NCBI GenBank assembly: GCA_963833425.1
Contig: CAWHXP010000015.1
Coordinates: forward strand, 134,817 to 198,816
From: an uncultured Methanosarcinaceae archaeon
Lineage (GTDB): Archaea; Halobacteriota; Methanosarcinia; Methanosarcinales; Methanosarcinaceae
DNA: 64,000 bases
Reading direction: 5' to 3'
Position numbers and translations under genes: made by a program. The notes beneath the pieces are model-generated. The model was given only the letters and a program-made list of their open reading frames with translations. It ran no database searches and had not been told where the DNA came from. Below, one piece after another: positions 45,604-64,000 of this stretch. Each line of letters begins with the position of its first letter. Positions within the stretch are counted from its first letter, which is position 1.

Positions 45604-47114
45604 GAGTTTAGAAGAACAATTATAAGGAAAATATATTGACAGCAATTGTGAGAGAACGATTCGCAATCATTGTCCTTACAGTCATTATACCTTTCCTTAT
45701 CTGCATTTTTTTGTGGCATATAACAAAATTATTTATTCACTCCCAAGATAGCTGAATAGTTTTAATTTTTTAAAAAATGCCTAAAATTAAAAACCAGTTA
45801 TTATGCAGTGAACTCGGGAGTGATAGAAATTGCATTGCAATTCTGAACGCTGATAAAATTTACTATATCATAAAGGAAACTAAAGTAGCCTCTAAATTGT
45901 ATCATACTCTTATAAATAGTATATAAATGACTGTGAAAATCAGAGATCTGCCAGAATTTTTTTAAAATGTCTTGACAATATAAGAGAAAACAAAAAAGAA
46001 AAAGAGTCATATAGCAAATTAAAATATTTGATTTGGGATCATTTATTTATAGCCCAACAGTGGCATCGATATATACAATTGCTTGCAGAGGAGCACTCGA
46101 TCTCAATTTTCATTGATTTTTAATAAACCAAATCTTTGGAATTTTGTGCACCCGATGGGAATTTTTAAATTTTATCAAAATATTTTTATATTTTTCAGTA
46201 ATTTTTATGAGACATCTTTTAAATTCCTGTTTCCTTTTTTCTAAGGACTATGTATTATATTAGTATTAGGCTATAACTATTTAGAGTACATAAAAAACAT
46301 ATCATAAATTATATCTCGCAATAAGTCAATTATAAAATACTTTTAAACAAAAACCTCCTACTGGCTGCAGGATATCTTCACTTGCAGCTCACAAGATTAA
46401 CTTTGAGACATTTCCATTCATTGATGACTACAAAAAGTCTCAAGGATTTCGCAAAGATAGCAGTATATAAGTAAAAATGCCTTCAAAGTTCAGGTAGTAA
46501 AAGACCCGAATCCAGGACCATGATAATATGATCGTTTTAATTCAAATTTGATACAAGACAAACAAAAATTTTGAAGTAAAGAAAAGAGGTTACTTCATCA
46601 ATGAAATTAAAAAGCTAACTTTAGTGAAGGTAAAATTGAATAGGCTGAGCATAGGGAATAAACCTATCTGACGCAAGAAAATGCCTTAAATCACTCCATA
46701 ACCATTCAAGATTGAATAAAAAAGGAAAAAATTCAAAATCAGGAGATCGTTTACGTTTTCTCAACATATTCCAAGATATAATACAGACCAGGTTCGAAAA
46801 ATTCTGCGGCGCTTTAATGATGCTTCTGAAGCTAGAAACTGTCAAGTTTGCAATGTAGATTTTGGAAAGACGTTTACTTGAAGAATACGGCAGATGTGAA
46901 TATAGAAAAATTACTGCAGTTTCAGAAATAAAAACGAAAATTTTGAGTCAATAGTTGATGATATAGATGGAATTAAAAAAGAAATTTAGCGAAGTTTGCT
47001 CTTGTTAGAGAAAGGAATGAGCAATCAATTTTTAAATGTTTTCATCGAACTCGACCTATTTTTACTAGAAGATTTCTGCTCTTGATTTTATTCTGTGCAT
47101 GATTGTAGCCGAAG

Positions 47115-47510
47115 TTACCAAAATCGCCACCAAGGCTTCTTCACTCCTATTGATTCGATTTGCTTTTGGGTAATCAATGTCTGCATTTGCATCATGTAAT
47201 TTCTATGCGTTTCTTGACTATTCTCAATATCTCTTTTCAATGTTTCGATATGTTTTTCCTTTTCCTCTATTTGTTTATCTTTTTCTTCGATCCTTGCCTT
47301 CAATTCTAAATTTTCAGCAGATCCCTTTGTGCCCTGTGAGATCCCTTCGAGATCCCCCTGAGATCTAGTAGAATTACCCAGTAATAACTCAATGGCTTTA
47401 GTCATTGCAAGCTTTGGACTAGTATATCCTGCTGCCTCTATTTGCTCCCAGGTAGACATTGATATCCAACAGCATTGAATCTTTTTAAGTCCTCTGTGGT
47501 CATCTGTCAT
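47115..47510 (-). CDS. Hypothetical coiled-coil protein ending KKPWWRFW
   Basis: Heptad-rich ARIEEKDKQIEEKEKHIETLK segment and amphipathic WW tail. Confidence 0.7.
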   Translation of the reverse strand: MTDDHRGLKKIQCCWISMSTWEQIEAAGYTSPKLAMTKAIELLLGNSTRSQGDLEGISQGTKGSAENLELKARIEEKDKQIEEKEKHIETLKRDIENSQETHRNYMMQMQTLITQKQIESIGVKKPWWRFW

Positions 47511-47939
47511 ACATTCCCGATTAATCCCACTATATTCAAATGTGATGATTTGGATCCCAAAAATATATAATTTATTATATACTCAAAAATTTATGATAAT
47601 CAATGTGGTGTTCCCAATTGTAAATGATATCGCAAATTTGCTGTAAATTAAAAAATTTTCATGCGTAAATAAAGTTTATTCAAACAATATTATAAAACAA
47701 TGTTAATATAAATTTATTGTTTGATGTTAAAATGTCTTACGGGAAAATAAGTTTTATTCAGAAACTATTTTTCTTATAATCAATTTAAAATAACTCATTG
47801 AACTCAGTAAGTATTGCAGTCAATCGAAATTTGTTAGTGTACAGAAAAGATATCAACCAACTAATTTTTCGTAGCTTGAATGGTTGCCAAAAACAAGTTC
47901 CACATAATCATTAATTTTAGTCAAAAAGGAGTGAATTGC

Positions 47940-48060
47940 ATGTTGAAACAATCATTTAGCAGAATAAAAAAGGTACTGACTATTTCGCTTGCAGCCCTAT
48001 TTGTAGTAGCATTAACAGCCACGTCAGTGAGCGCTAGTTTAGTTACAGAACAGTCAGTGG
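47940..48060 (+). CDS. N-terminus of small secreted archaeal protein, truncated at junction
   Basis: GGAGTG RBS; MLKQSFSRIKKVLTISLAALFVVALTATSVSA signal peptide, then an abrupt change in sequence character. Confidence 0.55.
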
Positions 48061-48064
48061 TAGC

Positions 48065-48142
48065 GGGCACGATGCGGCGAAGGAGCTGGGGATTTCGGAA
48101 AGGACGTTGTACAGGAAAATAAAGGAATACGACCTTGAGTAA
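48065..48142 (+). CDS. C-terminal Fis-type HTH of a bacterial sigma54 activator (5' truncated)
   Basis: Translates HDAAKELGISERTLYRKIKEYDLE*. Confidence 0.8.
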   Translation, partial: GHDAAKELGISERTLYRKIKEYDLE

Positions 48143-48158
48143 GTAAAATGGCAAAATA

Positions 48159-48465
48159 GCGGACGAGCGGACAGGCGGACGAGCGGATAAGAGTATCAGA
48201 GGTCAAAAGGCGGACAAGCGGACAGTTGGACGGGCTGCAGGCAGCAGTCGGCAATCAACTTCAAGCTCCATCTTCCATTCTCTATCCTCTATTTTCCAAT
48301 TTACATTCTTTTTCTTCTGAATTCCTGCATTTCTGCATTCTGAATTCCTGCATTTTCCGCCTTCCGTTCTCTGACTTCTGCAATTCCGGCGCCACGGATG
48401 AGATGGGTCAGGGGGATAGGTTATCACACTTTTGCCATTTTACCATCTTACCATTTTGCCATTTA
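48159..48465. repeat. Low-complexity short tandem repeats (GCGGACGA, TTCTGCAT, TTTGCCAT types)
   Basis: Visible ~8-bp periodic runs between convergent bacterial genes. Confidence 0.6.
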
Positions 48466-50015
48466 TTTATTCACTACAATCTTTCTCGCCACCTGGTTCT
48501 GGCTGGTTTTAAGGATCACCGTATAAACTCCACTTGCCACAGGTTTCAGGTCAATTACCTTTTGGAGTGATCCGGGTACTTTTACATTTGTTTCTTGGTA
48601 GATATTGACTCCAAGGGTGTTGTAAATGGTGATGGTGAAAGTTTCTTCTGAGGAGGTGGTGATTGTAATATTAAATTTGCCGTCGTTGGGGACCGGATAT
48701 ATGTTGATAACAGGTGAAGAGTGGAAATTGATGCCAAGATAGCTAATAAATATATGGAACGATGTATCGGAAGAACAGCCGTTCAGGGTAACCATATCCC
48801 AGTACCAACCAATCTAAGTCATAACATAAATCTGGCCGGTAGCACCTGGAATCAGATTACCTTCGAAGTACCACTGGTTTCCTGCAGGAGCACTACTGTG
48901 GAGGCTGTCCCCTTCAATGTTAACAACCGGTGTTGGAGGAACAGGATTCACTGTTACAGAGAAGTTTGGGGAAACGGGTCCGTTTCCACAAGAATTGCTG
49001 CCGTAAACGGTAATATTCCCTGAAACTGCAGTAGTGCTATAATCAACTGTTATAGAGTCGGAATTTGAGCCGCTTCCTGCTGTAGCGCCTGTGGGGAGTG
49101 TCCAGATATAACCAGTGGCGCCATATATTGGAGGAAATTTATAAACTTTGCCGGAAGAGCCCTGGCATACCGAATCGGGCCCGGTGATGTTTCCTGCGGC
49201 AGCGGGCAATTGAGTAACTGTTACGCTAAATGGTGGCGAATCCTGGCCATCGCCGCAAATGTTGTTACCCCAGACAAAAACATCACCACTGGAGGCATTG
49301 GCTGCAAAGTTCACCGTTATTGAGTTTGTTCCTGCACCGGAGGCGATTGTGACATTTGGCGGTAAAGCCCAGACATAAGTGGTGGTGTTCGGGATCGGAT
49401 AAACAGAATAAGCTACGCCAGTGGCTCCGGCACAGACGTTGGCAGTTCCGGTAATAGATCCAGCTGCACCCGGCAATGGATTGATCGTAACATTCAGTAC
49501 AGTAGGTGATATTGGATTACAACCTGCACCGCTTGTATAGGTGACACTTACCGTTTGCGGGCCGGCCATGATCCAGGAGACCTGGATCTGGTTGGTGCCG
49601 GAACCATAGTTTATAATTCCACCTAAAGAAACTGTCCATATATAATTTTGCATTCCGGCTTCAGTCGTATAGTTGTAATAGCCTGAATTGACGCACATGC
49701 TGGTTTGACCGGTAATGGTTGGAACTGGCAAGTGGATTGACTGTAACAATGTTATACACGTAGGTGTTAAAGCGGTGCAGCCATTGGCGTTCGTGTAGTT
49801 CACGCTTACTGTTTGAGAGCCTGCAGTATTCCATGTGACGGTGACGGAACTGCTGGTTGAAGTGCCTCCCGCCGTGATCATGCCTCCAGAAGAAACTACC
49901 AACTGTAGTTAGTCATGCCTGACTGCGTTGTATAGACATTTCCTGTTGATGATGCACAAACCGGTGACGGGCCTGCCAAAGCAGGTACCGGCAATGCATT
50001 GACAGTAATGGGGTA
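48463..50015 (-). CDS. Bacteroidota T9SS cargo protein (PKD/Ig-like repeats plus Por C-terminal sorting domain), 5' truncated and frameshifted
   Basis: ITG...VC..Y..W repeats across ORFs 48814-49902 and the tail of 49896-51083; CTD IYPVPNDG.F..IYN.LG..GVY.V...RKIVVNK. Confidence 0.8.
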
Positions 50016-51083
50016 TAGGCCACAGGTAATGCTGGAGCATGGAGAGCGCATCCGGATCGATATCGTCCATCGGCTTCTGGAACATTTGCCCATACTGGCG
50101 CAAAAAATGCCGGGCGATACCGGGATATCCTCGGGATGCTCACGAAGAGAGGGCGATTCGACCCGCATCACGTTGATACGGTAGAAGAGATCCTGGCGGA
50201 ACTTTCCTTCGGCCACCAGCTTGGATAGATCCTGGTGCGTGGCGAAGACCAGGCGTGCCTTCAGAGGGATAAGACGAGTGCTGCCAAGGCGGCTGAACTC
50301 CATCTGCTGCAAAACGCGCAGCAGCTTGACCTGGGTAAAGAGGCTCAGGTCGCCAATCTCATCTAAAAACAGCGTGCCGTCGGCGGCCTGCTCGAAGTAA
50401 CCCTCGCGCGATCCGACCGTCCCGGTATAGGCGCCTTTCTCATGGCCAAACAACTCGGCCTCAATCAAAGTCTCTGGAATGGCTCCACAAGAGACGGCCA
50501 CAAATGGCTTGGCAGCACGCGAACCCAGATTGTGGATGGCCCGCGCAATCAACTCTTTGCCGGTTCCGCTTTCGCCGGTGACCAGCACGGCGGCATTCAG
50601 ATTGGTAACGCGATGCACCAATTGATAAACCCGCTGCATCTGGGGGCTGGCGCCAATCAGCTTGTCGCAACTGGCGGGAACATCCAACTGCTGCTGCACC
50701 GTCTCCAGTTGCTGCCGAAGCGTGGAGTTCTCATACGCCCGGCATAGCATCGTCTTGAGATCGCGAATCGAAGGCGGCCGACGGCAGTACCCGAAGGCTC
50801 CGGTGCGGACTAATTCAAAAGCCGTGGAGCGCAGGCCGTCATCGGCCATAATCACAGCGGGAACGCGGGTGGCGATCAGGCGCTGGGTGCATCCGATGCG
50901 CTCCTGCAGTGAATCATGATTCGAATGCAAGTCAAGAATCATGACATCGCAGTCACCGGCGGCCCGCATGACTCGCATCCCGTCCTCATCGGACTCCAAT
51001 AGGACTTCAAACTCGTTACCGAGAGCGGACGCAAGAAGGGTGTGGAGCGTGCGGTCTTCCGAATATAGCCCGACTTTGATCAT
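50016..51083 (-). CDS. Sigma54-dependent response regulator (NtrC-like), 3' truncated
   Basis: Receiver domain, GESGTGKE, GAYTGT (GAFTGA variant), LFLDEIG and FRQDLFYR; breaks off at HYLWP. Confidence 0.88.
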
Positions 51084-51785
51084 TGATCGACCTGCTCCAG
51101 ACAGTATGCGCTACCCACCCTTAATCGTGAAAGTAGCGGCACTCCTCTTACGGTATCAGTGACGGAGCGCCAACAGCGCATCGAATCCCCAGAGCGAATA
51201 TAGCTCGCAGAGCCTGACTCCGTGCAATGATGCTAATGACAAATCAATTGCGTGTCGATCTTACTTTAGTAACTCATCTCCGTTATTAGGCCCCGTGTCC
51301 CCTTGTCAAAAAATGGGACAAACAGGAGAACGCTCACACGGAATCGCATACAACCCGCAATCCGCGAGAAGACATATTTCATCTATCTGTTTGTTATCTG
51401 TATCTTGCGGGCGTCTTCCGATCTTTGTCAAAAAGTTAACAGGATGAATAGCGGCTGATTGGCCGTAATATACTGCCGCATATCCGGCGCGTCAGTAAGA
51501 ATATCCGGCATACAGGTAACTTTTTCAGGGGTACTTAATAATTTGGTTCTGGGCTCTCAAATTCGACGAATCCATGCCGATTGAAGCCTGTTTTGCACAT
51601 CTTTCTGTTGAAAGCGCGATGAGGAGCGCGCGAAAAGCTTTACGGAACGGGTGTATACCCTGCGCTTCACCGGAGAGAAACCCCGCCGTAAACATCTGTC
51701 TACACATTTCCGATCCGCTCAGGTCGACTATCCAATATTCAGTCACTTTTGGCTTAAATCGAGACATTTTTGACTTTAGAAACTT

Positions 51786-51801
51786 TGGTCAGGGAATTGC
51801 A
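51786..51801 (+). promoter_or_regulatory. Putative sigma54 (-24/-12) promoter of the cpa/tad operon
   Basis: TGGTCAGGGAATTGCA has GG-N10-GC spacing and lies ~70 bp before the prepilin peptidase ATG. Confidence 0.5.
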
Positions 51802-51869
51802 ACAAGGCTATTGCAACAGCAATTATCCGTCTCTCCCTGAAGCTGGGAGACGAGAAGGGAGGACTGAGA

Positions 51870-52475
51870 ATGCACTGGTTAGCGTGGTGGCCGACAATGA
51901 TAGTTCTCTGTGTGGCAACGATCACAGATCTGCGCAGCCGCCGCATCCCAAACTGGCTTGTCCTTCCTTTTCTTGCAACTGGGATATTGGTCTCCCCTTG
52001 GCGTGTGGACTGGACAGAAGTGCACAAGAAGCTCTGGATACCAAGAGATTGGTCCAGTTTTCGTCAGGGCATTTGGCCGGGAAGCGGCTCCGGATTTAAT
52101 TGGCACGGATTGGAACAGAGCCTGGGAGGCGCGGGGCTTGGCTTTTTGTTATTCGGTATTCTCTATTGGAAGTTTGGCATGGGGGCTGGCGATGTGAAGC
52201 TCGCCGCCGCGATCGGGGCCTGGATTGGCCCGGAACAGTTGATGTTTGCGCTCTTTTTTACCAGTCTGGCAGGAGGAATCATCGTGCTGGGCTGGATGGC
52301 CTACCTCAAGATTTTCAAGAATCTGGCGCAGAGCACGGCAGATCTGATCTTGGGACGGAAGAAGATGGAGATGCAAGGCAATCCGGAGAATTCTGTAGCC
52401 TCATTGCTGAAGCGCTCGATTCCATATGCTCCAGCCATCGCAGTGGGTACGTTCATGTCTTTTTTCGCTTATTAA
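51870..52475 (+). CDS. cpaA: Prepilin peptidase (A24; CpaA/TadV)
   Basis: TDLRSRRIPN, MGAGDVKL and IPYAPAI motifs. Confidence 0.9.
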   Translation: MHWLAWWPTMIVLCVATITDLRSRRIPNWLVLPFLATGILVSPWRVDWTEVHKKLWIPRDWSSFRQGIWPGSGSGFNWHGLEQSLGGAGLGFLLFGILYWKFGMGAGDVKLAAAIGAWIGPEQLMFALFFTSLAGGIIVLGWMAYLKIFKNLAQSTADLILGRKKMEMQGNPENSVASLLKRSIPYAPAIAVGTFMSFFAY

Positions 52476-52493
52476 GCCTTGGGGGCCAGTAGT

Positions 52494-55400
52494 ATGACCG
52501 AATCATCCTCGACCTATCATTCTTACGAAGAACGGCAAGACAAGTCTAGCGCGTCAGGGGGTAAAAAACCCGTGAATTCAGACACATCTCAGTATCTCGA
52601 CGATCAGTACCCGGATTCTCTTGGCGCAGATCTTCTATCGATTGCGCTGATCGGCCCGGACGAAGGACGCCGCAAGGCGGCAGCCACCGCTCTGGCCGGA
52701 TGCCAAGGTGGGGAGATCCGCGAATTCTCCACTTATCCGCCCAGCCTGGACGATGTACCCAAGCTGCTGGAGCAGCGGTACGACGTCATCATCATCGACT
52801 TGGACAGCATGCCCGAATATGCCCTGGAGCTGGTGGAGAGCATCTGCGCCAACGGGACGGCAACGGTGATGGTTTACTCGGTGAAGGCCGATTCGGAGTT
52901 GCTGGTCCGCTGCATGAGAGCTGGCGCACGCGAGTTCCTCACCTTGCCCTTCACGCACAGCACCATGGCCGAAGCGCTGGTGCGGGCTTCGGCCCGGCGT
53001 CCATCGGCACGCCCCTCAAAGAAGACCGGCGGCAGGCTGATGGCCTTCCTCGGCGCCAAGGGCGGTGACGGCGTGACCACGCTGGCCTGCAACTTTGCCG
53101 TTTCCATGGCCAAGGAGTCGGGCCAAAGCACGCTGCTGATCGATCTTGATCTGCCGCTGGGCGATGCCGCGCTGAATCTGGGCGTGGTGGCAGAGTACTC
53201 GACGATCAATGCGCTGCAGAATGCTGCCCGGCTGGACTCAGCCTTTCTTTCCAAGCTGCTGGTCAAGCACAGCTCGGGCGTTTCGGTGCTGGCCGCGCCG
53301 GGCAAGTTTCCGCAGTTCCCTGCCACCAATGATGCGATTGACAGGCTGCTCGCCGTGGCGCGGCAGGACTTTGACAATGTTGTCATCGACATGGGTTCCC
53401 GGCTGGATCTGATGGGGACCAGCCTCTTCAAGGATGGCTCCACGGTTTACCTGGTCATCCAGGCGGGCATTGCCGGATTGCGCAACTCGAATCGCCTGAT
53501 CTCGCAGTACTTCGCGACGGGAATTCCCAAGCTGGAGATCGTGCTCAACCGCTATGAGCCGCGCACTATCGGCGTGGCTGAGGATCAGATCACCAAGGCG
53601 CTGACGCGGCCGGCGCAGTGGAAGATTCCCAACGATTATGCCGCAGTGCGGCGTATGCAGACCACGGCCATTCCGCTGGCGCTGGAAGATTCGCCAATCT
53701 CCCGGCTGATCCGGCAGATGACCCGCACGGCTGCGGGAATGCCGAATGTTCAGGAGAAGAAGGCCGGATTCAGCCTCAAGAGCCTCAGCCGCAGCTTTTC
53801 GGGCAGGTCGACAACTGCCCGAAGAAAGTTCCAGCTTCACGCAGCTTGGCCTGGCGTCAGGGCCAGATCATCCTGTCGCAGCACGGCCTGTGAAGGATAC
53901 GGAAACGCCGGTGGCGGCGAAGTCCGCCTATGCCGCGCCCGTTCAGCCGCCGCCTGCTGCGTCCGCGCCGTATGCGCCACAGGAGATCGTGGACCGTCCT
54001 GCTCAGCCCAAGCGGCCCGCACCGAGCGCGCCTGTGCCCGCCCCCGTCAAGCAGCAGGGTCCGCTCGAAACGCGCACCTACAAGGGTGCCACATACGTGA
54101 AGGGCACGGACGGTGAATGGCACATCCAGCAGGCTCCATCCAGCCGGTTCATGAACCCGTCGCCGCCGCGCCGATCCCCCCTCCACCAGCCCCGATCAGG
54201 GCGGTTGCACGGGAGACACCCGTTGAAAAGGAAACGCCTGTGGAAAAGGAGACACCGGCGGTCGCGTGGTCGACACCCGCGGCGATCACCTATGGCACTC
54301 CGCTGACCACCACGCAACTCCGGGCCATGGCGTCGGTTCCCGGAAAGTTTGCCTACACGCCAAGCATTGGCGAGATGCTCCCGGCGGGTACGCATACGCT
54401 TTCGGTTGCCTTCACGCCCAATGATTCCGCCGGTTACACGACGGCACAGGCCACCGTTACGCTAATCGTCACCAAAGCCACGCCGGCGATTATCTGGCCT
54501 GCGCCGGCGCCGATTCACTACGGCGCTCCGCTCAGCGCCGGGCAATTCAACGCCTCGGCCTCGATTCCGGGAAAATTTGCATATACGCCAGCCGTTGGTG
54601 AGGTGCTTTCGGCGGGAACGCATACCCTTTCGGTCACTTTTACTCCAGCCGACTCCGAGGGCTACTCAACAGCCCAGGCTACCGTCTCGCTGACCGTCAC
54701 CAAGGCCACTCCGACTATCGCATGGCCCACGCCAGCGCCGATCGTCTACGGCACCGCGCTCAGTGCCTCTCATCTCAATGCCGAGGCAACGGTTCCAGGG
54801 CTAAGTTTCACCTACACTCCCGCCGTCGGTACGGTGTTGTCCGCCGGCGTCCAGACACTTTCGGTGGTCTTCACACCGGCCGACTCGACGAATTTCGCCT
54901 CGGCGCAGGGCACGGTTTCCCTGACCGTCACCAAGGCAACGTCGACGGTTTCCTGGCCCAAGCCCGAGCCGATCGTTTATGGAACCGCACTCAGCGCCAC
55001 GCAACTCAACGCCACTTCGCCGGCTCCCGGCAAATTCACGTATATTCCTTCCGTCGGTGCTGTCCTGGCGGCAGGAACGCATACGCCTACCGTGACCTTT
55101 ATTCCGGCTGACGCCACGAACTATAATCCGGTGCAAACCGCCATTACACTGACGGTCACCAAGGCGACGCCAATCATCACCTGGCCCGCGCAGGCCTCCA
55201 TCACCTATGGCGATGCGCTCAGCGCTACACAGCTCAATGCCACGGCATCGGTTCCCGGCAAGTTTGTATACTCGCCGGCCGCGGGCGAAATTCTATCGGC
55301 AGGAACGCACACTCTGTCTGTGCTCTTTACACCGACAGACAGCGCGGACTACGCCTCGGTGCAGAGTTGTGTCTCGCTGACGGTGACCAAGGCCAAGCCA

Positions 55401-56269
55401 ACGGTGATCATGTGGCCTACACCCGCTTCGATCACTCAAGGCAAGCCGCTCAGCGCCGAGCAGTTGAATGCAACGGCGCCGGTTCCCGGCAAATTTGTCT
55501 ACACACCAGCGGAAGGCGAAGTGCTTTCAGCAGGAACGCATACGCTGTCCGTGCTCTTCACGCCGGCCGACAGCAACTTCCCTCCTGCCCAAGCGGCCGT
55601 CTCGCTGACCGTTTCCAAGGCTACACCCACAATCACATGGTCAACGCCAGCCCCCATCTCGTACGGCACCACGCTCGGCGCAGGCCAGCTTAACGCGAAA
55701 GCGTCGGTTCCGGGCAGCTTTGTCTACTCTCCAGCGGCGGGCGAAGTGCTTCCCGCAGGAACGCACACGCTGACGGCAACCTTCACTCCAGGGACACTGC
55801 GGATGTTGCTACCGCGCAGGCCGAGGTTTCGCTGACTGTCACCAAGGCGACTCCTATCATCACCTGGCCAGCGCCTGCCGCCATCTCATACGGCACTTCA
55901 CTCAGCGCCACGCAATTCAATGCCACGGCGCTGGTTCCCGGATCCTTCGTTTATACTCCTGCTGCCGGCAACGTGCTGACAGCGGGCACGCAAAGACTTT
56001 CAGTAACCTTTATCCCCAAGGACACAGAGGACTACACCTCCGCTCAAGCCACGGTTTCGCTGGTCGTGGAAGGGTTGCCGAATATCGCAAGCCTCATGCC
56101 GGCGACGATCGAAAGCGATGCAGATTACAATGAACTCGCCGATGCAAAGCAGGGAGTGCAGCCCAGCGGCAGCACATCTGAGCAGCAGGGCAAACTTGAA
56201 ACACGCACTTACAAAGGTGCTACTTACGTGAAGGGAGCCGATGGACAATGGTACCTCCAGAAGAAATAG
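52494..56269 (+). CDS. cpaE: CpaE/TadZ (receiver-like plus MinD-type ATPase) apparently fused to a Pro-rich linker and eight Ig-like repeats; three frameshifts
   Basis: MRAGAREFL, GAKGGDGVTT, LIDLD and VLNR motifs; continues through ORFs 53746, 54117 and 55973 via shifts near 53815, 54140 and 55790. Confidence 0.7.
54252..56068 (+). repeat. Eight ~76-aa coding repeats (TP.I.WP.PA.I.YG..LSA.QLNA..VPG.F.Y.P..G..L.AGT.TLSV.FTP.D)
   Basis: Counted directly in the translations (seven in ORF 54117, the eighth after the shift). Confidence 0.9.
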
Positions 56270-57303
56270 AATTGAACGCACCCACAACACTTCCCGCGGA
56301 TTTCGGTGAATGGGATAGCTCGGATCAGCCTGCCGCTCAACCCGCTGCCAAACCCGGCGGATTCGACGGTTTTCCTGGATCTGTTGCCGCTCCCAAGCCG
56401 CCGCCAAGCCTGCGACTGCGCGTGTTGCCGTTCTGCCGGTTGCGCCCAAGACGCCGCCCCCAGCTCCACGGCGTCCGGTGCCCGTCTACGCTGAAACCGA
56501 GCAGGTCCATCAGAAGCCGCAACAGTATTCCGCGAAGGCGGCCAGTCAGGACGAGCAGCCCGAAGAGAAGAAGAAGACAGGGTTGTTTGTTGGCATCGGC
56601 ATCGTGGCGGTTCTGTTGATTGGCGGCGGCGGCTATGGCTACCTCCACATGCACTCCGGCACAGCCGTACAGAAGGCAGCAGCAGCCTCGCAAACGGCAT
56701 CGAGTTCATCGACCGAGCTGAAGCCGACGCCATCGAGTCCAACGGACACGGAAGCGCCCAAGGCTTCAACGACGGCCAGCACAACAGCCGATACCACGGA
56801 TACCACCGCAAGCAGGAGTCACGCCGATTCCGAGGCGATGGATCATCAATTGAACGCACCCTCGCGGATATCCAGTGACTTGAAGACATTGGCCGGAGGA
56901 AGGAGATGCGCCGCCAGCGGCCGGCTTTGGCGCGGGCGACCTGGGAGGCGTCAGCCAAAACAGCAGTGTCTTCGCGGGGCAGTCCGGTCCCAAGGTCAAA
57001 GTCGCAGCGCCGCAGAGGGTGAACATCTCGGCTGGCATCGCAGTTGGATTGTTGATGCAGAAGACCGCCCCTGTCTATCCTCCCATTGCCAAAACCGCTC
57101 GCGTGCAAGGCACGGTGGTGATTCAGGCCAACATCTCCAGGAGCGGATCAATCGAGAATCCGCGTGTGGTCAGCGGCCCGGTAATGTTGCGTCAGGCGGC
57201 TCTGGACGCGGTCAAGAGCTGGCGTTACAGGCCCTATATGCTGAGCGGAGAGCCTGTCGATGTGGAAACGACCATCAATGTAAACTTCGCGCTGGGTGGA
57301 TGA
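56248..57303 (+). CDS. TonB C-terminal-domain membrane protein (frameshifted)
   Basis: Single TM LFVGIGIVAVLLIGGGGYGY, Ser/Thr/Pro linker, PVYPPIAK.ARVQGTV...AALDAVK.WRY.P domain. Confidence 0.75.
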
Positions 57304-57388
57304 GTGGCTTCGCGCCGCCTCCGCCCTTTGTCGACTGGCTATAAGATGGTAGTGTGCATGATAAACAACTCGCTTTGGAAGGTAGAAT

Positions 57389-58666
57389 GTGGAACTTCTG
57401 AATCTGGAAAAGTATAAAGCTGAAATTCATCGGACACTGATCTCTAAGCTGGACTTGGAAAAGCTGTCGCGTGTCAATTCCAGTCAGGCACGTCAAGCGG
57501 TAGCCGGCATCGTCAAGGAGATTATCTCCGATCAGCGCGTGCCTTTGAACTTTGACGAGCAGGAGAAGATTCAAGCTGATCTGCTTGACGAAGTCTTTGG
57601 GCTGGGTCCGCTGGAGCCGCTGCTTCGTGATCCAAAGATTTCAGACATCCTGGTCAATGACAAGGATCATGTTTTTGTGGAAAAGGGCGGACTGCTGCAA
57701 AGGGTCGATACGACCTTTCGCGACGACCGCCATTTGTTGCAGATTATTGACCGCATTGTTTCGCGGGTTGGACGCCGGGTGGATGAATCCTCGCCGATGG
57801 TTGATGCGCGTTTGCCGGATGGCTCCCGCGTGAACGCGATCATTCCTCCACTGGCTCTCGACGGCCCCTCGTTGTCGATTCGCCGCTTTGGAACAGGCCC
57901 TCTTGCCGCGAACCAGTTGGTTCAGTTGAAGAGTGTTTCAGCTGAGATGATGGAAGTGCTCTCTTCCGCGGTGAAAGCCCGGATCAGCATTCTCATCGCC
58001 GGCGGCACCGGCGCCGGAAAAACGACGTTTCTCAATATTCTCTCGCAATACATTCCGCGCAATGAGCGTTTGGTCACCATCGAGGATGCGGCAGAACTCC
58101 GTCTGGCGCAGGAAAACATCGTGCGCCTGGAGACCCGCCCTCCCAATATCGAAGGCTTGGGAGCGGTCAAGCAGCGTCAACTGCTGATCAACTGCCTGCG
58201 TATGCGCCCGGATCGCATTATCATGGGCGAGATCCGCGGCGAAGAAGCCTTCGATATGCTTCAGGCCATGAATACCGGCCACGAAGGCTCGATGACCACC
58301 ATTCACGCCAACACGCCCCGCGACGCTATCTCCAGACTTGAATCGATGGTTGCCATGGGCATGACTCTGCCCGAAAAATCGGTTCGCCAACAGATCGCTT
58401 CCGCTATCACGATCGTCGTTCAGGCCACCCGCATGAGCGATGGCACGCGCAAGGTGACGAGCGTTGCCGAGATCACTGGAATGGAAGAAAGCGTTGTCAG
58501 TATGCAGGAGATATTCAACTTTACGAAAAAAGGAATTGGACCCGATGGCAAGGTTATCGGCGTATTTCAGCCGACGCATATTCGTCCCCGGTTTCTTGAG
58601 CGGCTCCGCGTCTCAGGCATCGTCCTGCCGCCGATTCTTTTCGAACGCGAAACGCCAGTAAATTAA
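57389..58666 (+). CDS. cpaF: Tad pilus assembly ATPase CpaF/TadA
   Basis: [41 protein letters not shown] and AMNTGHEG. Confidence 0.95.
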
Positions 58667-58687
58667 GCAGAAGGGAGAACCAAGGTT

Positions 58688-59664
58688 ATGGGTACTGGAA
58701 TGATTGTTCTTATCTTTCTGCTTGTCTTCGGTTTCGTGGCGATATTCGCTGTCGCCCTCGGCAGCGGAGCATCCAAACAGGCCAAGCAGGTCCATGCCAC
58801 GCTGGACTCAGCCTTGGCCACCGAGAGTCCGGAAAAACGGGGGCCTCTGCTCGACCTTCGCAAGTCAGAGCAGTTGAGCAGCATCCCATGGCTCAATTCC
58901 AAACTGCTGCAATTTGAATTGACGCCCCGCCTGCAGTCCCTGCTCTATCAGGCAGATCTCAAGTGGAGTCCTGGAGGCTTGCTGGCTGGCAGCGTGCTTT
59001 GCTTTATAGTCCCAGCTTATCTGGTTTATCTGCGCTTTAGCTCGATCCCTATCACGATTGGAGTCGGTTTTTTTACGGGTTCCTTGCCTTTTCTTTGGGT
59101 TCGCCACAAACGCAGCAAGCGCCTCAACGTCTTTCAACAGGGGTTGCCGGAGGCGCTGGATCTGATGGTCAATGCGATGCGCGCCGGACACAGCCTCATT
59201 GCCTCGATCGGGTCCGTGGCGCGCGAGTGCGCCGATCCGATCGGCTGCGAATTCAGATCCTGTTTCGAGGAGCAGAACTACGGCCTGGAAATGAAGACTG
59301 CCATGGACAATATGGTGAGCCGGGTTCCTCTTCAGGATCTTCGTATTGTCGTTACCGCAATCATGATTCAGAGGGAGAGCGGCGGAAATCTGGCCGAAGT
59401 TCTTGACAAGACCTCGCATGTGATCCGGGAACGGTTCCGCCTGAAGCGGCAGGTCGGGGTTCATACCGCCCAGGGGCGCATGACCGGGTGGGTGCTGACG
59501 TTTCTTCCGGTGGGACTGGGAATCGCTTTGTACATGGTCAACCCTGAGATGATTAGCATCTTGTGGAAGACTCCGATTCGGCCTCAAGATGCTCTGGGCT
59601 TCGTCGGATCATGATTTTTCTTGGCGGCTTAATTATTCGCAAGATTGTCAACATGGATGTTTAG
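58688..59664 (+). CDS. tadB: Tad pilus inner-membrane platform protein TadB (frameshift near 3' end)
   Basis: LPEALDL...MRAGHS, IQRESGGNLAEVL and TAQGR; a shifted frame ends IIRKIVNMDV*. Confidence 0.88.
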
Positions 59665-59671
59665 GTGACTT

Positions 59672-60222
59672 ATGGGAAACATGTTTTATGTGTATTCTGG
59701 CATTCGTTGGCGTCTTCCTGATGATCCTCAGCGGAGGGCTGCTTCTGTTTTACCGCGAGGAGATGCTACGCCGCATCTCCGAGGCGATCAATCCGCAGCC
59801 CAAGGAGAAACCCTGTTAAGCACCATCCAGAAGACCGGCCTTTCGATCGGCGGCGTCATCGAGCACTTCGAGAATGTCCTGCCTAAGAGTCAGGCCGAGG
59901 TCTCGATTGTCCTGCAGCGCCTTCACACGCTGGGTTTCGCAACGAGTCGGCAAAAAGGCCTTTTACGGCGCAAAGGTCTTGGTTCCCATCGTGATCTGCA
60001 TCCTGATATGGGCATCGGGACTTGTGAGTCTCGAGAGGCCCTTTTCGCTCTTTTCATCGGTGCCCCGTTGGGCTTTCTGGGCCCTGATTTCTGGCTCGCA
60101 ACCGGATCAAGAAACGCCAGAGCAGGATTCGGCGCGGCCTGCCTGATGTCCTCGATCTGCTGGTGATCTGTATCGAGGCCGGACTCAGCTTGGACCATGC
60201 GACCGCGCGCACCGCAGTGGAG
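59672..60222 (+). CDS. tadC: TadC, frameshifted and 3' truncated at junction
   Basis: Follows tadB; fragments GP.FWL and RIRRGLPDVLDLLVICIEAGLSLDHA. Confidence 0.8.
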
Positions 60223-60563
60223 TTTGTCTCTATTACCGAGATACGGGCCTTCAGGGGATTGAGCGCTCTCATTTGCCGATCTTCCGATTGAGTGTCTTCA
60301 ACGCGCCTCATCTGAAACTGCAGGTCAGTGACCTGAGTCGACAACTGATTGACGCCCTTGGCTAAGGGGTCAACTTCTTTACGTATCTTGCCGGACAACT
60401 CTTGCGCGGGGACTGCGCCTCGTCTATCGAGGAACGATCCAATTTGGTCTCTGAAACGCGCTGCTAACCAAACTAAGAGAACGAACAACAGAAAAGGCCA
60501 GTCCATTAGGTGATCGATGACCTTACCTACAAGTCTGATCAAAGAGTCGACAATACTAAACAT
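60223..60563 (-). CDS. Hypothetical membrane-anchored coiled-coil protein, 3' truncated at junction
   Basis: AGGAG RBS; TM WPFLLFVLLVWLAA followed by a heptad segment; the frame runs into antisense tadC. Confidence 0.55.
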
Positions 60564-61770
60564 TTCAATCTCCTGAGTGTGCTGTTACAGAACCGGGCCT
60601 GCGCGGTTGAGCTTGCCGAGCCCCATGCGGCGCCCTATCTCGATGGCTAAATTATTGGTCCGTGTGGAACGGCATTATATGTGAGTCATAACGGAATACG
60701 TCAAGGATTATCTTACCATTATAATAAAAAGGTAAGCTTCGGATGATCCCGAAATCCGCCGTTCAAGTAGTGACTATTCTTGGCTTTTGTCGACTTTGAT
60801 CTTTAGGGTCGCAGCAATATCCTTTTATATCAATGAGGTGCAACTGCCTACATTAGGAATCGAAAGCGCCGTTTTCCAAGAAACCGTGAGGGCGTAATCC
60901 GCGCCTGGTGTTCTCGACACACTGGATGGCGCAGATTGATTAGGAGTTGAGGCTACGGGCAGGGCTCCACAAGGCACTAACCTTGGAAACTGCGAATAGA
61001 GAAGCGCAGCGCGGAAATACCCGCGCGTTTGTTTGCCCGTTGACGCTGCGTCGCTCACTGCGTGACCACACATCTCAGGGGCGTCATTAGCGAAAGAGCC
61101 CTTGACTGATATCTATTCGGTTACGCGCGGGGAATTGCTTCGCTGCGCTGGCGACGGCATGCCAAGCCGCCTTTGCGAGAGCTGAAACGACGGAACAATC
61201 TCAGCGTTCCCCGCTTATAACTGAATGATTGTCCGGCCTAAACACTGCCGGTCGCGTCGACTTCCTACCTGCTGGTAATGTGGCCAGAGATTTTCCGACA
61301 TTTCCGTAGCTTATTGGGGGGCCTCCGTGGTCCCGGCCCCGTTTTCAAGGCAGGTCAGTTTGTGGCACGATTCGTGCTCAGCTTCATCCCCATAACGATC
61401 GGGCAGTCGTTACTACTTTTTCTCCTCCCAAGGGGCTCCGGGTCATGCCACCTCCGGCCTGGAGTTCCTCCCAAGATCGCAGAATCTTCCGACCGTCGGC
61501 ACATTTCGCAAGCTCTACTGCGGGTTCAGGCTACCTCCCAAAAAACTCCGGCTCCAAATGATTCTTGAAGACGAGCGTAAAGCGCCCCGCTCGGAAGTTC
61601 AGTGTCAGCCCAGCCGGCGCACGAGTTTTCTCTTCACCCTACTCCGATTGAAAGGCTGCGCGGTCGCCCCTCCGAGGCCTACGCCTCCAGGCCGTTGGTT
61701 AGCTTAGTGGTCTTTGGCGTAAATACGGTGACGTATTCATGATCAAAGCCCCGGTCAGGCGGACAGCCAA

Positions 61771-61853
61771 ATAGGATGTGGAGCCAAACGGGAACCGCAT
61801 CGTTCGAGGCCTTTTCTCGACAGATGCGGTTCGCTTCGCTCACCACATCCTAT
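61771..61853. repeat. REP/REPIN-like palindromic element
   Basis: ATAGGATGTGG...GAACCGCATC-(spacer)-GATGCGGTTC...CCACATCCTAT nested inverted repeats. Confidence 0.65.
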
Positions 61854-62310
61854 AAGAATACGTGACCAGAATTGCTCCATAGAGCAATGAGTAAGAGGCG
61901 CGAACGGAATCCACTTCAGTTCGTGACTTCAAGCCATCAATGTGGCTTGTTCCGCTCACGGAGACCTGCCGGAATATTGTGAGCGCTTTAGGAAACGGAG
62001 CGCTGGGCCAACAGGAATACGTTATTTTGTAATTTTGTGAAGATATGGCAAATCGCCGTGGAGAAAATAGTAGGTAGGACGAAAAAAGTTGGAACTTTGC
62101 CGAATGACAGAGAACTTAGTATAATTATAGGGTGATATTTCATCCGCGCTTAGGCGGCGCGAACCTGACCAAATTTCTGGAAAAATCCCGAAAATTTTTC
62201 AGCCTTCGACGTGTTGCCCGGAAAAGTTTATGCCGGACACCAAGTTTTTCTTTCCTCTTGAGCGTTAAAAGAGTATCATCACAGAAATTGTTTAACAATT
62301 GGAGGCTTCA

Positions 62311-62781
62311 ATGAATAGTGGAATGGGTCGGCTTTCCATAGCTTTTTCCTTATTCCTTCTCCTTTTGACAGGTGCGACGGTTCATGCTTCGGCCAAAGTG
62401 CCTGAAGGCTATAGAGATATTAAACTTGGGATGAACCGATCTCAGGTCGTGGAACTACTCCAAAAGAGCCCGATTCATTTTTCATATGATGAAATAGGAG
62501 GAGAAATCGGTGAAATAGTCCGGGGTGATGATCTGTTCCGGTTTGCCACATATAAGTTTGACAAGGAAGGCGTTCTTGTTGAAATTGGCCTGCAAATGCG
62601 CGAAGTCCTGGGGCGAGATCGATGCTTGGAGCTTTATAACACCCAGCATGGCCTTCAAGTGACCCCGCTTAAGAGCACGAGCGATTCGAATGTCACACTG
62701 GAAGTTAAAGACAATAGCCTAATTATGAAGAAGAATACAGGTAAGGATACTCGTTCGGCCTCCAGAGGATCAGCATCCTAA
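62311..62781 (+). CDS. Hypothetical secreted protein
   Basis: GGAGG RBS, signal peptide ending VHA, GYRDIKLGM motif. Confidence 0.7.
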   Translation: MNSGMGRLSIAFSLFLLLLTGATVHASAKVPEGYRDIKLGMNRSQVVELLQKSPIHFSYDEIGGEIGEIVRGDDLFRFATYKFDKEGVLVEIGLQMREVLGRDRCLELYNTQHGLQVTPLKSTSDSNVTLEVKDNSLIMKKNTGKDTRSASRGSAS

Positions 62782-63039
62782 GAACCGGCGGGAGGGCCTG
62801 TTTATAGACGGATAGGCGCCTGTGATTGCTTTCCGACGCTGTAAGCGCCTAGTTCAAAATGAAAGAGTTAATTACCTGATTGTGAAACTCGACGTACGGC
62901 GCGGCCCTGACAACTGCCGCGCCGTATAACGTTAGTGCTCATGGCGTGTGTCATGGCGCTGGAGCAAGAACTCGGGAGGCGTGTCGCCACCCGTCTTAAT
63001 TACAAGTAGAGTACAACAACGTTCCAGTCATCGTCAAAA

Positions 63040-63509
63040 AAGAGTCCTCCCACCTGCTAGGGCATTAGAGAGAAATCAGAATCATTCCCTTGGTAAACAA
63101 ATCCTGGACGGCAAACTCAAAGGCGCTTGTGTCGGAACGCTTCGGTAAAGTCGGTCCCGGAGGAAAAGCGCAACATCTGAGCCTCTTGCAAAAGTCTCTC
63201 TCGGGGCAGGGAATTGCGAAGCGTACTTGAACGATCGTTGATGTTATCCGACGGGCACAATTTGAACGTTGCGCTCCCCTTGACTCACGCAGCAAAAGAA
63301 AGCGGTCTTACGTATCCAGTTTTCCGATACGCGAGCGCTCGCTTCACGATGTGACGGATGAGGTGATCAAATCCCTTTGCTTGGAGGCCCTGCGGCGCTG
63401 CGAAGGCAATAAGAGATGCGCTGCTCGCATGCTTGGCACAGCCCGAGACTCTCTGTATCGCCATATGAAGCGTTTCGGAATTGATGGGGACAATCCGACC
63501 GAGGATTAA
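63040..63509 (+). pseudogene. Degraded sigma54 activator C-terminus with Fis-type HTH
   Basis: RELRSVLERSLML and EALRRCEGNKRCAARMLGTARDSLYRHMKRFGI* in broken frames. Confidence 0.65.
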
Positions 63510-63702
63510 TTCGATAGCCCGACTTTAAGACACGCCGTGAATGTGTAGCCTACTGATAACACGGGGACAGCAATTCTTCGGTCCGTTATTAGGACACCTT
63601 CGCATTCCTTGCCGACCCTTCGCATCTCACTCCCACTGCATCACTGTGGCTAACTGCCTACTATTACAGCTTTTATATGCACATTCATCCGCTGACCATA
63701 AT

Positions 63703-63718
63703 TGGCACGCAAACTGCA
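63703..63718 (+). promoter_or_regulatory. Putative sigma54 promoter upstream of azoR
   Basis: TGGCACGCAAACTGCA matches TGGCAC-N5-(T/C)TGC. Confidence 0.65.
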
Positions 63719-63891
63719 GAGATGCGCTGCAAGGGTTAATAGAGTTCCAGTCGAATTATCCGAAACGCTTATGCGTGTTGTACAGGAAGCGTCAAGACAG
63801 CAAGGAGAACCAGGCTGCCATGTGTCGGATGCCGGCGGTGGATTTAAGACATGCCCAACTCACAGGGACAACACCATCTGAGGAGGTAAGA

Positions 63892-64000
63892 ATGAGCAAA
63901 CTACTTTACATAAAGGCGTCTCCTCGTGGAGAGCGATCTTATTCCAGTTCTGTCGCGGAGGCTTTCATAGGCGCATACAAGAAGCAACACCCGGATGACG
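63892..64000 (+). CDS. azoR: FMN-dependent NADH-azoreductase, N-terminus (runs off window)
   Basis: GGAGG RBS; MSKLLYIKASPRGERSYSSSVAEAFIGAYKKQHPDD. Confidence 0.85.
   Translation, partial: MSKLLYIKASPRGERSYSSSVAEAFIGAYKKQHPDD

Follow-up and report, generated by a model that had tools for sequence, protein, structure and literature searches.

CpaE/TadZ positions the Tad pilus machine, of which it is the least understood core part. Here we describe a variant of this protein encoded in a stretch of DNA of 64,000 nucleotides (the window; positions 134,817 to 198,816 of contig CAWHXP010000015.1, assembly GCA_963833425.1), deposited as part of an uncultured Methanosarcinaceae archaeon, in which a cpaE/tadZ gene at 52494-56269 on the forward strand runs on into eight immunoglobulin (Ig)-like domains and overlaps a gene for a TonB-like protein. 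In Caulobacter, CpaE has been fitted as six dimers ringing the CpaF hexamer, is thought to reach the inner membrane via a C-terminal amphipathic helix, and may touch neighbouring dimers through its receiver domains (PMC13170226). The nearest described oddity is TadZA of Bdellovibrio bacteriovorus, in which a TadZ without a receiver domain is fused to the TadA motor and the TadZ-linker binds RomR (bioRxiv 10.64898/2026.07.08.737194). The nearest functional analogy is offered by GltJ and GltG of the Myxococcus Agl-Glt machinery, described in two papers as bitopic inner-membrane proteins with small adaptor modules and linear motifs in a long cytoplasmic N-terminus, a transmembrane helix, a disordered periplasmic stretch and a TonB-CTD-like domain (PMC11135422, PMC11761067).

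Compared with CpaE of Caulobacter crescentus and TadZ of Aggregatibacter, the window protein shares a receiver domain joined to a MinD/ParA ATPase, a Walker A motif of the form KGGxGx[ST]T, a fold matching the structures 3ea0 and 3fkq, and a gene position adjoining cpaF-tadB-tadC and a prepilin peptidase gene. It differs in its ~820 extra residues, made up of linkers, two copies of a motif that we call YKG and the eight Ig-like domains, in having a TonB-like gene as a partner, and in belonging to a locus without cpaB, secretin and pilin genes. A basic-hydrophobic segment stands at the position of the membrane helix of CpaE (PMC13170226). Bdellovibrio TadZA is likewise a TadZ lengthened by natural fusion, through which the Tad machine is linked to a spatial cue, whereas the Ig array and the TonB-type partner are absent there. 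GltJ and GltG similarly form the connection between the envelope and a cytoplasmic platform of which a receiver-domain protein is part, their adaptor modules binding a receiver-domain scaffold, yet they use ZnR, GYF and FHA adaptors where the present system has YKG and a DFxxWD peptide, serve another machine and carry no Ig rod; we liken the two without shown homology. The original prediction, made from the sequence of the window alone, did not recognise this architecture. We too found no CpaE/TadZ with Ig-like domains or a TonB partner among the hits listed for the open-access full text and bioRxiv literature searched, although the architecture already stands in hundreds of database entries under automatic names. 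On balance, we think it probable that the gene is an elongated CpaE/TadZ of a Terracidiphilus-type acidobacterium, present here as a damaged chimeric copy, whose Ig rod is tethered to a TonB-like anchor; this is the joint explanation that serves best.

Translation of 52479-56270 in all frames, with the frames joined, gives a single gene of ~1,255 aa that spans 52494-56269 and ends with the stop codon 56267-56269. The frame-0 open reading frame (ORF) 52479-54116 becomes Arg/Cys/Ala-rich nonsense beyond ~53816, after KKAGFSLKSLSRSFSGR; frame 1 reads a Pro/Ala-rich linker ending in LETRTYKGATYVKGTDGEWHIQ; frame 0 is back at ~54147 with seven Ig-like repeats, and frame 2 supplies the eighth repeat, an acidic linker and then LETRTYKGATYVKGADGQWYLQKK. 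The features of the gene, with the intact orthologue L024 as reference, are as follows (AF2, AlphaFold2).

52494-56269, plus strand: cpaE/tadZ-Ig8-YKG gene, ~1,255 codons, three 1-base shifts (frames 0, 1, 0, 2)
52638-52991, plus strand: atypical receiver-like domain (ARD), from Pfam, AF2 and Foldseek
53034-53732, plus strand: MinD/ParA-type ATPase domain, from Pfam AAA_31 and CbiA and the 3ea0 match
53052-53081, plus strand: deviant Walker A motif GAKGGDGVTT, from the sequence
53757-53807, plus strand: basic-hydrophobic segment KKAGFSLKSLSRSFSGR, candidate membrane-targeting helix, located where unfused relatives end
53817-53820, plus strand: frame shift 1, one base too many, frame 0 to 1 (..actgCCCgaag..); L024 is uninterrupted there, reading SGRSSSATDESSSFTQLGL
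53821-54066, plus strand: Pro/Ala-rich linker, in frame 1
54067-54129, plus strand: internal YKG motif ETRTYKGATYVKGTDGEWHIQ
54141-54146, plus strand: frame shift 2, one base missing relative to intact L024, frame 1 to 0
54255-56062, plus strand: eight tandem Ig-like domains of ~76 aa each, from the repeat starts
55788-55792, plus strand: frame shift 3, one base missing relative to intact L024, frame 0 to 2 (ccaGGGac)
56063-56197, plus strand: conserved VVEGLPNIASLMP segment, then an acidic disordered linker, from alignment and AF2
56198-56266, plus strand: C-terminal YKG motif ETRTYKGATYVKGADGQWYLQKK, with 15 invariant columns in 35 sequences

Each Ig-like repeat starts at a W (54267, 54495, 54723, 54954, 55182, 55413, 55638 and 55865), and the C-terminal YKG is a conserved three-strand mini-motif, ETRxYKGAxYxKGxDGQW[YH]LQ. 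The reconstruction from sequence alone, of a CpaE with the motif GAKGGDGVTT and no stop at its usual end, joined across three single-base shifts to eight ~76-aa beta-rich repeats for a total of ~1,250 aa, was thus correct in every particular, with eight W-started repeats and ~1,255 aa counted.

The core of the protein is that of a CpaE/TadZ. Pfam assigns it AAA_31 (6.1e-11) and CbiA (2.5e-07), with Response_reg just below threshold (29.8 bits against a cut-off of 30.2), and by sequence it matches PDB entry 3ea0 at 8.9e-23 and CheY chains at E 2e-04. An AF2 model of the window core, built on 39 sequences, shows a receiver domain followed by a MinD-type domain, residues 49-166 forming an alpha/beta fold at a predicted local distance difference test (pLDDT) score of 83-94; the N-terminal 45 residues are not confidently modelled. 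The top Foldseek matches of this model are 3ea0 (TM-score 0.83 on the target) and the two-domain structure 3fkq, TadZ of Eubacterium rectale, which is matched over both domains in 372 columns. The KKAGFSLK segment falls below pLDDT 50 and forms only a 3-residue helix in the model, and is conserved (KK.GFSLK) where unfused relatives end; we presume it to be comparable to the membrane-targeting sequence of MinD. Among NCBIfam models the core has only sub-threshold MinD/Ssd-type matches, and a score of 63.8 bits against the cut-off of 154.45 for TIGR03815 (CpaE_hom_Actino / Ssd) places it, on sequence, outside that equivalog. A deviant Walker A ATPase, an N-terminal receiver domain and a tad-locus setting all speak for CpaE/TadZ, and only size and end depart from it, at ~1,255 aa against ~400-450 aa and ~820 aa beyond the usual end; the protein is a variant CpaE/TadZ.

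Relatives carry this architecture in single, unbroken ORFs, which puts it far beyond chance. A scan with the CpaE core, one genome per species, returned 80 loci labelled Terracidiphilus, Acidobacteriaceae or Acidobacteriota, at 65-95% amino acid identity to the window. Among the 26 loci examined first, 20 hold a single intact ORF of 1,233-1,377 aa ending ..GADGQWYLQK[KNE]*, and the remaining six are accounted for by a longer paralogue and by copies with shifts or cuts of their own. Searching 5.8 billion proteins (length 694-2,211 aa) with the L024 protein gave 636 matches at E<=1e-5; Ig-type Pfam families occur in all 120 of those listed, mostly together with CbiA, AAA_31 or Response_reg, under source names such as 'Flp pilus assembly CpaE family ATPase', 'AAA family ATPase' and 'hypothetical protein'. 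The check that had been proposed, for intact single-ORF homologues combining CpaE with the repeats in Acidobacteriota, was run with a positive outcome and, since relatives keep one uninterrupted ORF, we read the window copy as one gene across its indels.

In an even draw of the order, 136 of 201 genomes have a CpaE match at E<=1e-20 (a tally that includes G082, G128, G066, G054, G076 and G068, six genomes that are flagged as unpublished and not used further). Most frames in the close clade (>=49% identity) are 400-460 aa among the matches listed, where long frames of 892-1,679 aa occur at nine places in eight genomes (G041 twice, G216, G134, G129, G114, G063, G242 and G208). Unfused relatives at 61-67% identity (L101-L103) end ..KKKGFRLFG, ..KKKRFSFFGSK or ..KKKKAFSLFG and sit in canonical loci of the order cpaA-cpaE-cpaF-tadB-tadC-PilZ-tadE-tadG, with cpaB further downstream in L102; the fused type retains the basic-hydrophobic segment internally. 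A second class of CpaE paralogue (L039:9284-14587, L082:9974-13960, P0172, P0184 and P0196) consists of the core, a YKG and 4-6 Ig domains, after which the C-terminal half of the ATPase domain with its KKKGFSLKG segment is repeated, then another YKG and a long Lys/Ala/Pro tail that is histone-H1-like (..AKKPAKK..), which suggests binding to DNA or another polyanion. No TonB-like gene lies downstream of these class 2 paralogues.

In the window, the stop codon of the cpaE-Ig gene falls within the gene that follows.

56248-57303, plus strand: TonB-like partner gene, from tblastn high-scoring segment pairs in frames 1, 3 and 1, with two frame shifts, overlapping the cpaE-Ig stop by 22 nt

Here gene 1 reads QWYLQKK* and gene 2 MVPPEEI on the same bases. 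A programmed -1 shift joining the two genes was considered, but no canonical slippery heptamer lies in the overlap CAGAAGAAATAG. The predicted partner has an N-terminal MVPPEEIELNAPTTLPADFGEWDS, one transmembrane helix (Kyte-Doolittle maximum over 19 residues 1.92, at GLFVAIGVTAVLLAGGGFG), a Ser/Thr-rich linker and a TonB_C domain; the latter scores 67.5 bits (1.4e-18) in the L024 partner, with which the window copy shares 86% identity across 132 aa of the TonB_C part. Across orthologues the partners span 319-505 aa, with a conserved N-terminus, a long low-complexity cytoplasmic stretch, a transmembrane helix, a Ser/Thr/Pro-rich stretch and TonB_C. They begin MVPPEE..LPADFGEWD, and the consensus of 35 N-termini is M(V/A)(P/S)P..(I/L)....P.(T/I)LP(A/E)(D/N)F.(E/D)WD, in which M1, P12, L15, P16, F19, W22 and D23 are invariant. 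In common with the TonB of ExbB-ExbD-TonB systems, the partner has TonB_C, a single N-terminal-proximal transmembrane helix and a Pro/Ser/Thr-rich periplasmic linker; it differs in a cytoplasmic N-terminus of ~110 to 270 aa with a conserved peptide, and in some relatives a CpaE-type receiver domain, or the complete CpaE-Ig protein, precedes it. No exbBD genes were found among the scanned L024 ORFs.

The overlap recurs among relatives: of the 35 loci whose CpaE-Ig has a C-terminal YKG, 34 place the ATG of the TonB-like gene 22 nt ahead of the stop codon's end, and the 35th is at a contig end. The same ATG-only test found an overlapping TonB-like gene in none of 22 loci without YKG, and L101-L103 run straight to cpaF. 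Over the last 68 codons (L024:13585-13792 and its orthologues; window 56063-56269), synonymous divergence (dS) in the closest pairs is 0.26-0.37, against ~0.8-0.9 upstream. This drop is probably due to the 22 nt shared by the two genes; translational coupling through an RNA element may perhaps also contribute.

Beyond these loci, a profile built from 105 YKG motifs and searched against 1.84 billion proteins matched 162 representatives at E<=0.001. Most of the 48 of at least 300 aa that were scanned are CpaE with Ig domains, or Ig-only pieces ending in YKG. The remainder includes P0265 (892 aa), in which a PP2C phosphatase precedes six Ig domains and a YKG at the C-terminus, as well as P0121 (755 aa) and P0122 (633 aa), which are arrays of 4-5 YKG motifs without Ig domains. 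In P0239 and P0262, a single C-terminal YKG ends otherwise unrelated proteins of unknown family. Three proteins, P0219, P0228 and P0248, place a CpaE-type receiver, a linker, YKG, 8-10 residues, the peptide (T/A)LP.(D/E)F..W(D/E), a further linker, a transmembrane helix and TonB_C in one chain, such that the end of window gene 1 and the start of gene 2 are contiguous. The P0219 family comprises ~100 clusters that combine a CpaE-type receiver domain at the cytoplasmic N-terminus with TonB_C, and its sources name Terracidiphilus TonB family proteins; within it (P0270-P0357), D[FI]xxW[DE] stands before the transmembrane helix, which could represent a second wiring of TonB-type anchors to components of the Tad ring. 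Neither the ESM Atlas, searched with L024 residues 1225-1263, nor Pfam at E<=5, searched with the 35 tails and 35 partner N-termini, gave a usable match, the Pfam matches being at chance level (DUF6461 in 9 of 35, best E 0.009).

The association also exists as a peptide bond. Using the C-terminal 334 aa of P0070 as a query against long proteins, we found 14 clusters of 1,134-2,041 aa that are covalent CpaE-Ig-TonB_C fusions, from sources that include NCBI, JGI, ENA and Logan, one of them on a 618-kb contig. Their layout is the CpaE core, KKKGFSLKG, the Ig array, ~70 aa, one transmembrane helix, a linker and TonB_C; the Walker A motif is present in 13 of the 14 (the last is N-terminally cut), and a single strongly hydrophobic segment separates Ig array and TonB_C in all 14. 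YKG and DFxxWD are found in none of them. That such fusions exist argues that attachment of the distal end of the rod to a membrane anchor has been selected.

The Ig-like array is itself well conserved. An AF2 model of Ig7-Ig8 and the tail of L024, built on 34 sequences, shows two beta-sandwiches at pLDDT 94-98, such that the AlphaFold check suggested for the repeats ended in confident beta-sandwich folds. Behind them, the tail has a short helix in the conserved EGLPNIASLMP, an acidic linker (model residues 178-206) below pLDDT 50, and three short strands in YKG at pLDDT 70-75. Foldseek places the Ig model among tandem Ig-type arrays (cadherin EC1-2, Rib domains, SraP and chitinase Ig domains, E 3e-06 to 1e-04), and the Pfam scores of the repeats, summed since no single stretch passes alone, favour Ig_CFAP65_4th (7e-19) and HYDIN_VesB_CFA65-like_Ig (1.6e-14); no NCBIfam model matched the repeats when the Big_3_5 / HYDIN-ASH-type class was under test. 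Over 601 indel-free codons the ratio of nonsynonymous to synonymous divergence (dN/dS) of the Ig region is 0.09-0.17 in seven of seven orthologue pairs, compared with 0.03-0.14 for the core. The Ig region is under purifying selection, at dN/dS ~0.1. The number of repeats varies, being 5 in L105, 8 in the window clade and L104, ~13 in L108 and 14-17 in P0070 and P0107.

No signal peptide or transmembrane segment was found in the window protein, and the intact L024 orthologue reaches a maximum Kyte-Doolittle 19-aa mean of 1.41. Windows above 1.6 occur in seven of 35 intact orthologues; those of L104-L107 (1.9-2.1) fall in the LLIDL..P.GD strand of the ATPase fold, and the remaining three, at 1.62-1.66, exceed the mark only marginally and sit in VVEGLPNIASLMPA, behind Ig8. 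The absence of export signals claimed at the outset thereby held in the hydropathy scan of intact orthologues. To our knowledge, CpaE-type ATPases are cytoplasmic and TonB_C is periplasmic in every known TonB. Because a single transmembrane helix separates the two in the 14 fused relatives, with the Ig array on the ATPase side of it, the Ig rod is, as judged from sequence, cytoplasmic, and the cytoplasmic extension proposed by the original prediction is borne out. Surface adhesin Ig arrays (Rib, cadherin EC, SraP) share the beta-sandwich and the beads-on-a-string arrangement, but here there is no export signal and the array stands between a cytoplasmic ATPase and, in the fused relatives, a transmembrane helix.

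The same type of repeat, at 45-60% identity, fills many other large ORFs. One of these, in Terracidiphilus (L130, G041:C2:1734879-1738589), shows the repeat immediately behind a lipoprotein-like signal (..LVLASC), in keeping with the likeness to exported acidobacterial surface proteins that had been pointed out. Another, of 1,900 aa, lies in the host assembly itself (G000 C3:426088-431790, minus strand) and carries Ig repeats and YVTN-type repeats behind an N-terminal hydrophobic segment.

From these observations we infer the following arrangement. The core would sit in a membrane-associated CpaE ring around the CpaF motor, as in Caulobacter, and the Ig array would leave the membrane surface as a cytoplasmic rod. 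An Ig domain is ~4 nm long, and the rod might thus measure ~30 nm if extended, plus linkers. Its far end would be fastened to the inner membrane by the co-translated TonB-like protein, which would span the periplasm, with the C-terminal YKG and the LPADFGEWD peptide of the partner serving as a non-covalent joint; in the 14 related protein clusters, a peptide bond would replace that joint. The best available argument for a joint formed by YKG and DFxxWD is that both occur exactly where the peptide bond is missing. Such spokes could link the motor ring of the Tad machine to anchors that extend to the cell wall or outer membrane, and candidate roles are mechanical anchoring to either, a corral that spaces or cages the machine, or a TonB-type route for energy or signals. 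Of the options first offered, spacer, ruler or scaffold, the rod-like cytoplasmic extension stands and is refined to a tether held by a TonB-like membrane protein. It is tempting to go further and to envisage up to twelve Ig spokes, one per CpaE subunit and each fastened, through the YKG-LPADFGEWD pair or a peptide bond, to its own long-necked TonB-type protein, as a stator, cage or corral coupling the motor mechanically or energetically to the envelope, with Ig plus YKG a general cytoplasmic tether used also by the PP2C phosphatase and the histone-tailed CpaE paralogues; we offer this as a tentative possibility that we do not expect to hold in full.

The most serious competitor takes the Ig rod to be a cytoplasmic spacer or scaffold that is free of the TonB-like protein, with YKG ends that bind some other target, for instance the nucleoid, a polar hub, a second YKG or the CpaE ring itself; the TonB-like gene would merely be co-regulated. 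In its favour, class 2 paralogues (L039, L082, P0172 and P0196) have YKG and a KAPAKK histone-H1-like tail without a TonB gene, P0265 carries Ig and YKG behind a phosphatase, P0121 and P0122 consist of YKG arrays, and most ARD-TonB proteins have the DFxxWD peptide without YKG. We nevertheless consider a free rod rather unlikely, as the 14 covalent fusion clusters, themselves without YKG and DFxxWD, show attachment of the rod end to an anchor to be selected, the two motifs are contiguous in three proteins, and the 22-nt overlap recurs in 34 of 35 loci. Several observations nonetheless weigh against a tether. The set of 35 loci was defined by the C-terminal YKG itself, the downstream-gene test takes only ATG starts within -60 to +120 nt, and the loci compared are close kin, which means that the counts of co-occurrence overstate its independence. 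Part of the conservation of MVPPEEI follows from its overlap with the conserved QWYLQKK codons. D[FI]xxW[DE] was read in 35 of 38 ARD-TonB proteins, whereas YKG was confined to the three selected for carrying it, and the LPADFGEWD peptide may therefore have another or an additional receptor. YKG counts of 1-3 do not follow the copy number of DFxxWD in the partner. On the putative binding of YKG to LPADFGEWD, a complex prediction for the C-terminal 60 aa with the partner's N-terminal 60 aa, scoring 0.02 against a mark of 0.32 with the partner fold uncertain, speaks neither for nor against. The geometry of the ring is extrapolated from Caulobacter, the rod varies from ~5 to 17 Ig domains across lineages, which disfavours a fixed ruler, and the fused-type locus has no secretin, cpaB or pilin gene.

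Whether the reading frames were rightly joined, and to which organism they belong, are separate matters. A stop at 54114-54116 (table 11), an ATG at 54117 that opens a 572-aa ORF and the occurrence of the same repeat type behind a lipoprotein-like signal in another Terracidiphilus ORF might suggest two genes, an ordinary ~430-aa CpaE with its own stop and an exported Ig-repeat protein, with the read-through an artefact of frame joining. However, the 545-aa ORF closes with ~100 aa of nonsense read out of frame and the meaningful frame continues beyond its stop, the 54117 ORF has no signal peptide, unfused relatives continue with cpaF rather than an Ig gene, the ORF is unbroken in 20 of 26 relatives, and the fusion is found in hundreds of database proteins, leaving two genes extremely unlikely. 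The frame shifts themselves are very probably long-read indel errors. Programmed frameshifting was rejected as their cause, as orthologues read straight through. The 10.2-kb block around the gene contains at least nine shifts, those outside cpaE-Ig comprising one in the sigma-54 activator, two in the TonB-like gene, at least one in tadB and at least two in tadC. ORFs of at least 300 aa cover 0.29 of the host assembly G000, but 0.48 and 0.57 of the sequence sampled from two closed congeneric genomes. That several genes of the block are shifted, that the sigma-54 activator and tadC are truncated at its ends and that public reads leave the indel sites uncovered would speak for a true pseudogene, with real mutations in a decaying or recently inactivated locus. 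Yet the four in-frame segments contain no stop, and dN/dS between window and L024 (core 0.06, linker 0.15, Ig1-7 0.12, Ig8 and tail 0.16) is the same as between intact orthologue pairs; CpaF is 99% identical in protein at ~80% nucleotide identity across the block; 3-base runs of C or G (CCC, GGG) mark two of the three shift sites, that at ~54141-54146 having only doublets (tcc ag cc); ORF length is deficient assembly-wide against closed relatives; and the truncations coincide with the ends of homology, as expected of a chimeric join. Decay is thus improbable. Against the reading as errors, it must be said that in four public soil or peat runs only 0.05-0.10 of sampled words were present, with a few near-identical short contigs over parts of the Ig region at depth 2-3.5 and no indel rows at the three sites; the read bins there are empty or hold relatives only, so that error as opposed to recent real mutation is unproven.

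The block is foreign to the genome in which it was deposited. G000 has 21 contigs of 34-39% GC (genome 0.36, compared with 0.50-0.62 for the tail described below), and the window is the last 64 kb of its contig C15, which ends in a tail of other composition.

47900-64000 (C15:182700-198816), no strand: high-GC tail of C15, GC 0.42-0.66, foreign to the 36%-GC host assembly

That the assembly is archaeal is supported by a match of 227.9 bits to MCR_alpha (methyl-coenzyme M reductase alpha), a family matched among the control genomes only in the two methanogens. Within the tail, only 50018-60224 matches Terracidiphilus DNA, syntenically over 10.2 kb at 77-81% nucleotide identity; the match begins inside the sigma-54 activator and ends inside tadC, ~3.8 kb short of the contig end. 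No CpaE orthologue was found in 40 relatives of G000, the best match being 23% identical. Because a fragment with sigma-54, TonB and Tad genes, cut at both ends, sits in a foreign high-GC tail of an archaeal contig, we are nearly certain that the block is an assembly chimera on an mcrA-bearing archaeal metagenome-assembled genome. Horizontal transfer of a bacterial Tad block into the archaeal genome, of which it would then be a true part, has in its favour that the block was assembled contiguously with 36%-GC sequence on C15. It is very unlikely all the same, for the block lies in a contig-end tail and is cut inside genes on both sides, the flanking pieces of non-host composition match neither 25 host relatives nor five Terracidiphilus genomes, the block depends on bacterial sigma-54, TonB and outer-membrane biology, CpaF has 99% protein identity to Terracidiphilus, and high-GC ends are seen on other contigs too. 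Accordingly, the final ~16 kb of C15 should not be counted as part of the archaeal genome.

Some features of the surrounding sequence may be noted here. A 362-aa ORF with a PKD_6 domain at 48814-49902 (minus strand, ~0.5 GC) was not found in 25 relatives of the host, and the flanking DNA at 47000-50020 and 60230-64000 has no match in the five Terracidiphilus genomes; this ORF and 60230-64000 (3.8 kb, ~0.5 GC) may derive from a third source. High-GC contig ends, of which there are at least three with that of C15, also occur at G000 C3:617000-624181 and C12:1-13000 and may all be chimeric joins, and high-GC patches lie inside C2, C3, C8, C10 and C18, where C2:122000-126000 overlaps a match to SSU rRNA.

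The remaining genes of the block are these.

50018-51083, minus strand: sigma-54 activator, divergent, with one frame shift and without the C-terminal ~116 aa; Terracidiphilus homology begins at 50018
51870-52475, plus strand: cpaA/tadV prepilin peptidase, Pfam Peptidase_A24 3.1e-22
57389-58666, plus strand: cpaF/tadA secretion ATPase, intact, 99% amino acid identity to L024
58688-60224, plus strand: tadB (T2SSF) and truncated tadC, in at least three frames; Terracidiphilus homology stops at 60224 inside tadC

Peptidase_A24, T2SSE and T2SSF thus flank cpaE-Ig, in the same order as in L024, and the operon order is cpaA / cpaE-Ig / tonB-like / cpaF / tadB / tadC. A regular expression for Flp pilins had no match in L024 or in window 48000-64000. 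Between the sigma-54 activator and cpaA lies an AT-richer intergenic region of ~800 bp (window 51084-51869; L024:8585-9373), whose window copy has no notable ORF, no Flp-pilin motif and no match to the sigma-54 consensus at <=2 mismatches. No canonical sigma-54 promoter signal emerged from the window as a whole, which has 23 matches against 27.9 expected and none in 51084-51869. Following tadC in both fused-type and ordinary loci is a 364-372-aa protein (L024:18694-19788 and L101:6799-7917, 55% identity) with a DUF192-like N-terminal part and, in L101, a C-terminal PilZ match, which hints at control by c-di-GMP.

Taken on its own, the window locus is an artefactual, damaged fragment; as Terracidiphilus biology, it is of real interest. 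A cytoplasmic Ig rod on CpaE would offer a testable handle on how the cytoplasmic ring of the Tad machine connects to the envelope, with the end of the rod tied to a TonB-type trans-envelope protein, in one lineage through overlapping genes, in another through a peptide bond. If this is true, it would be a rare case of tandem Ig-like domains working in the bacterial cytoplasm, and YKG would be a candidate for a new peptide-binding mini-motif.

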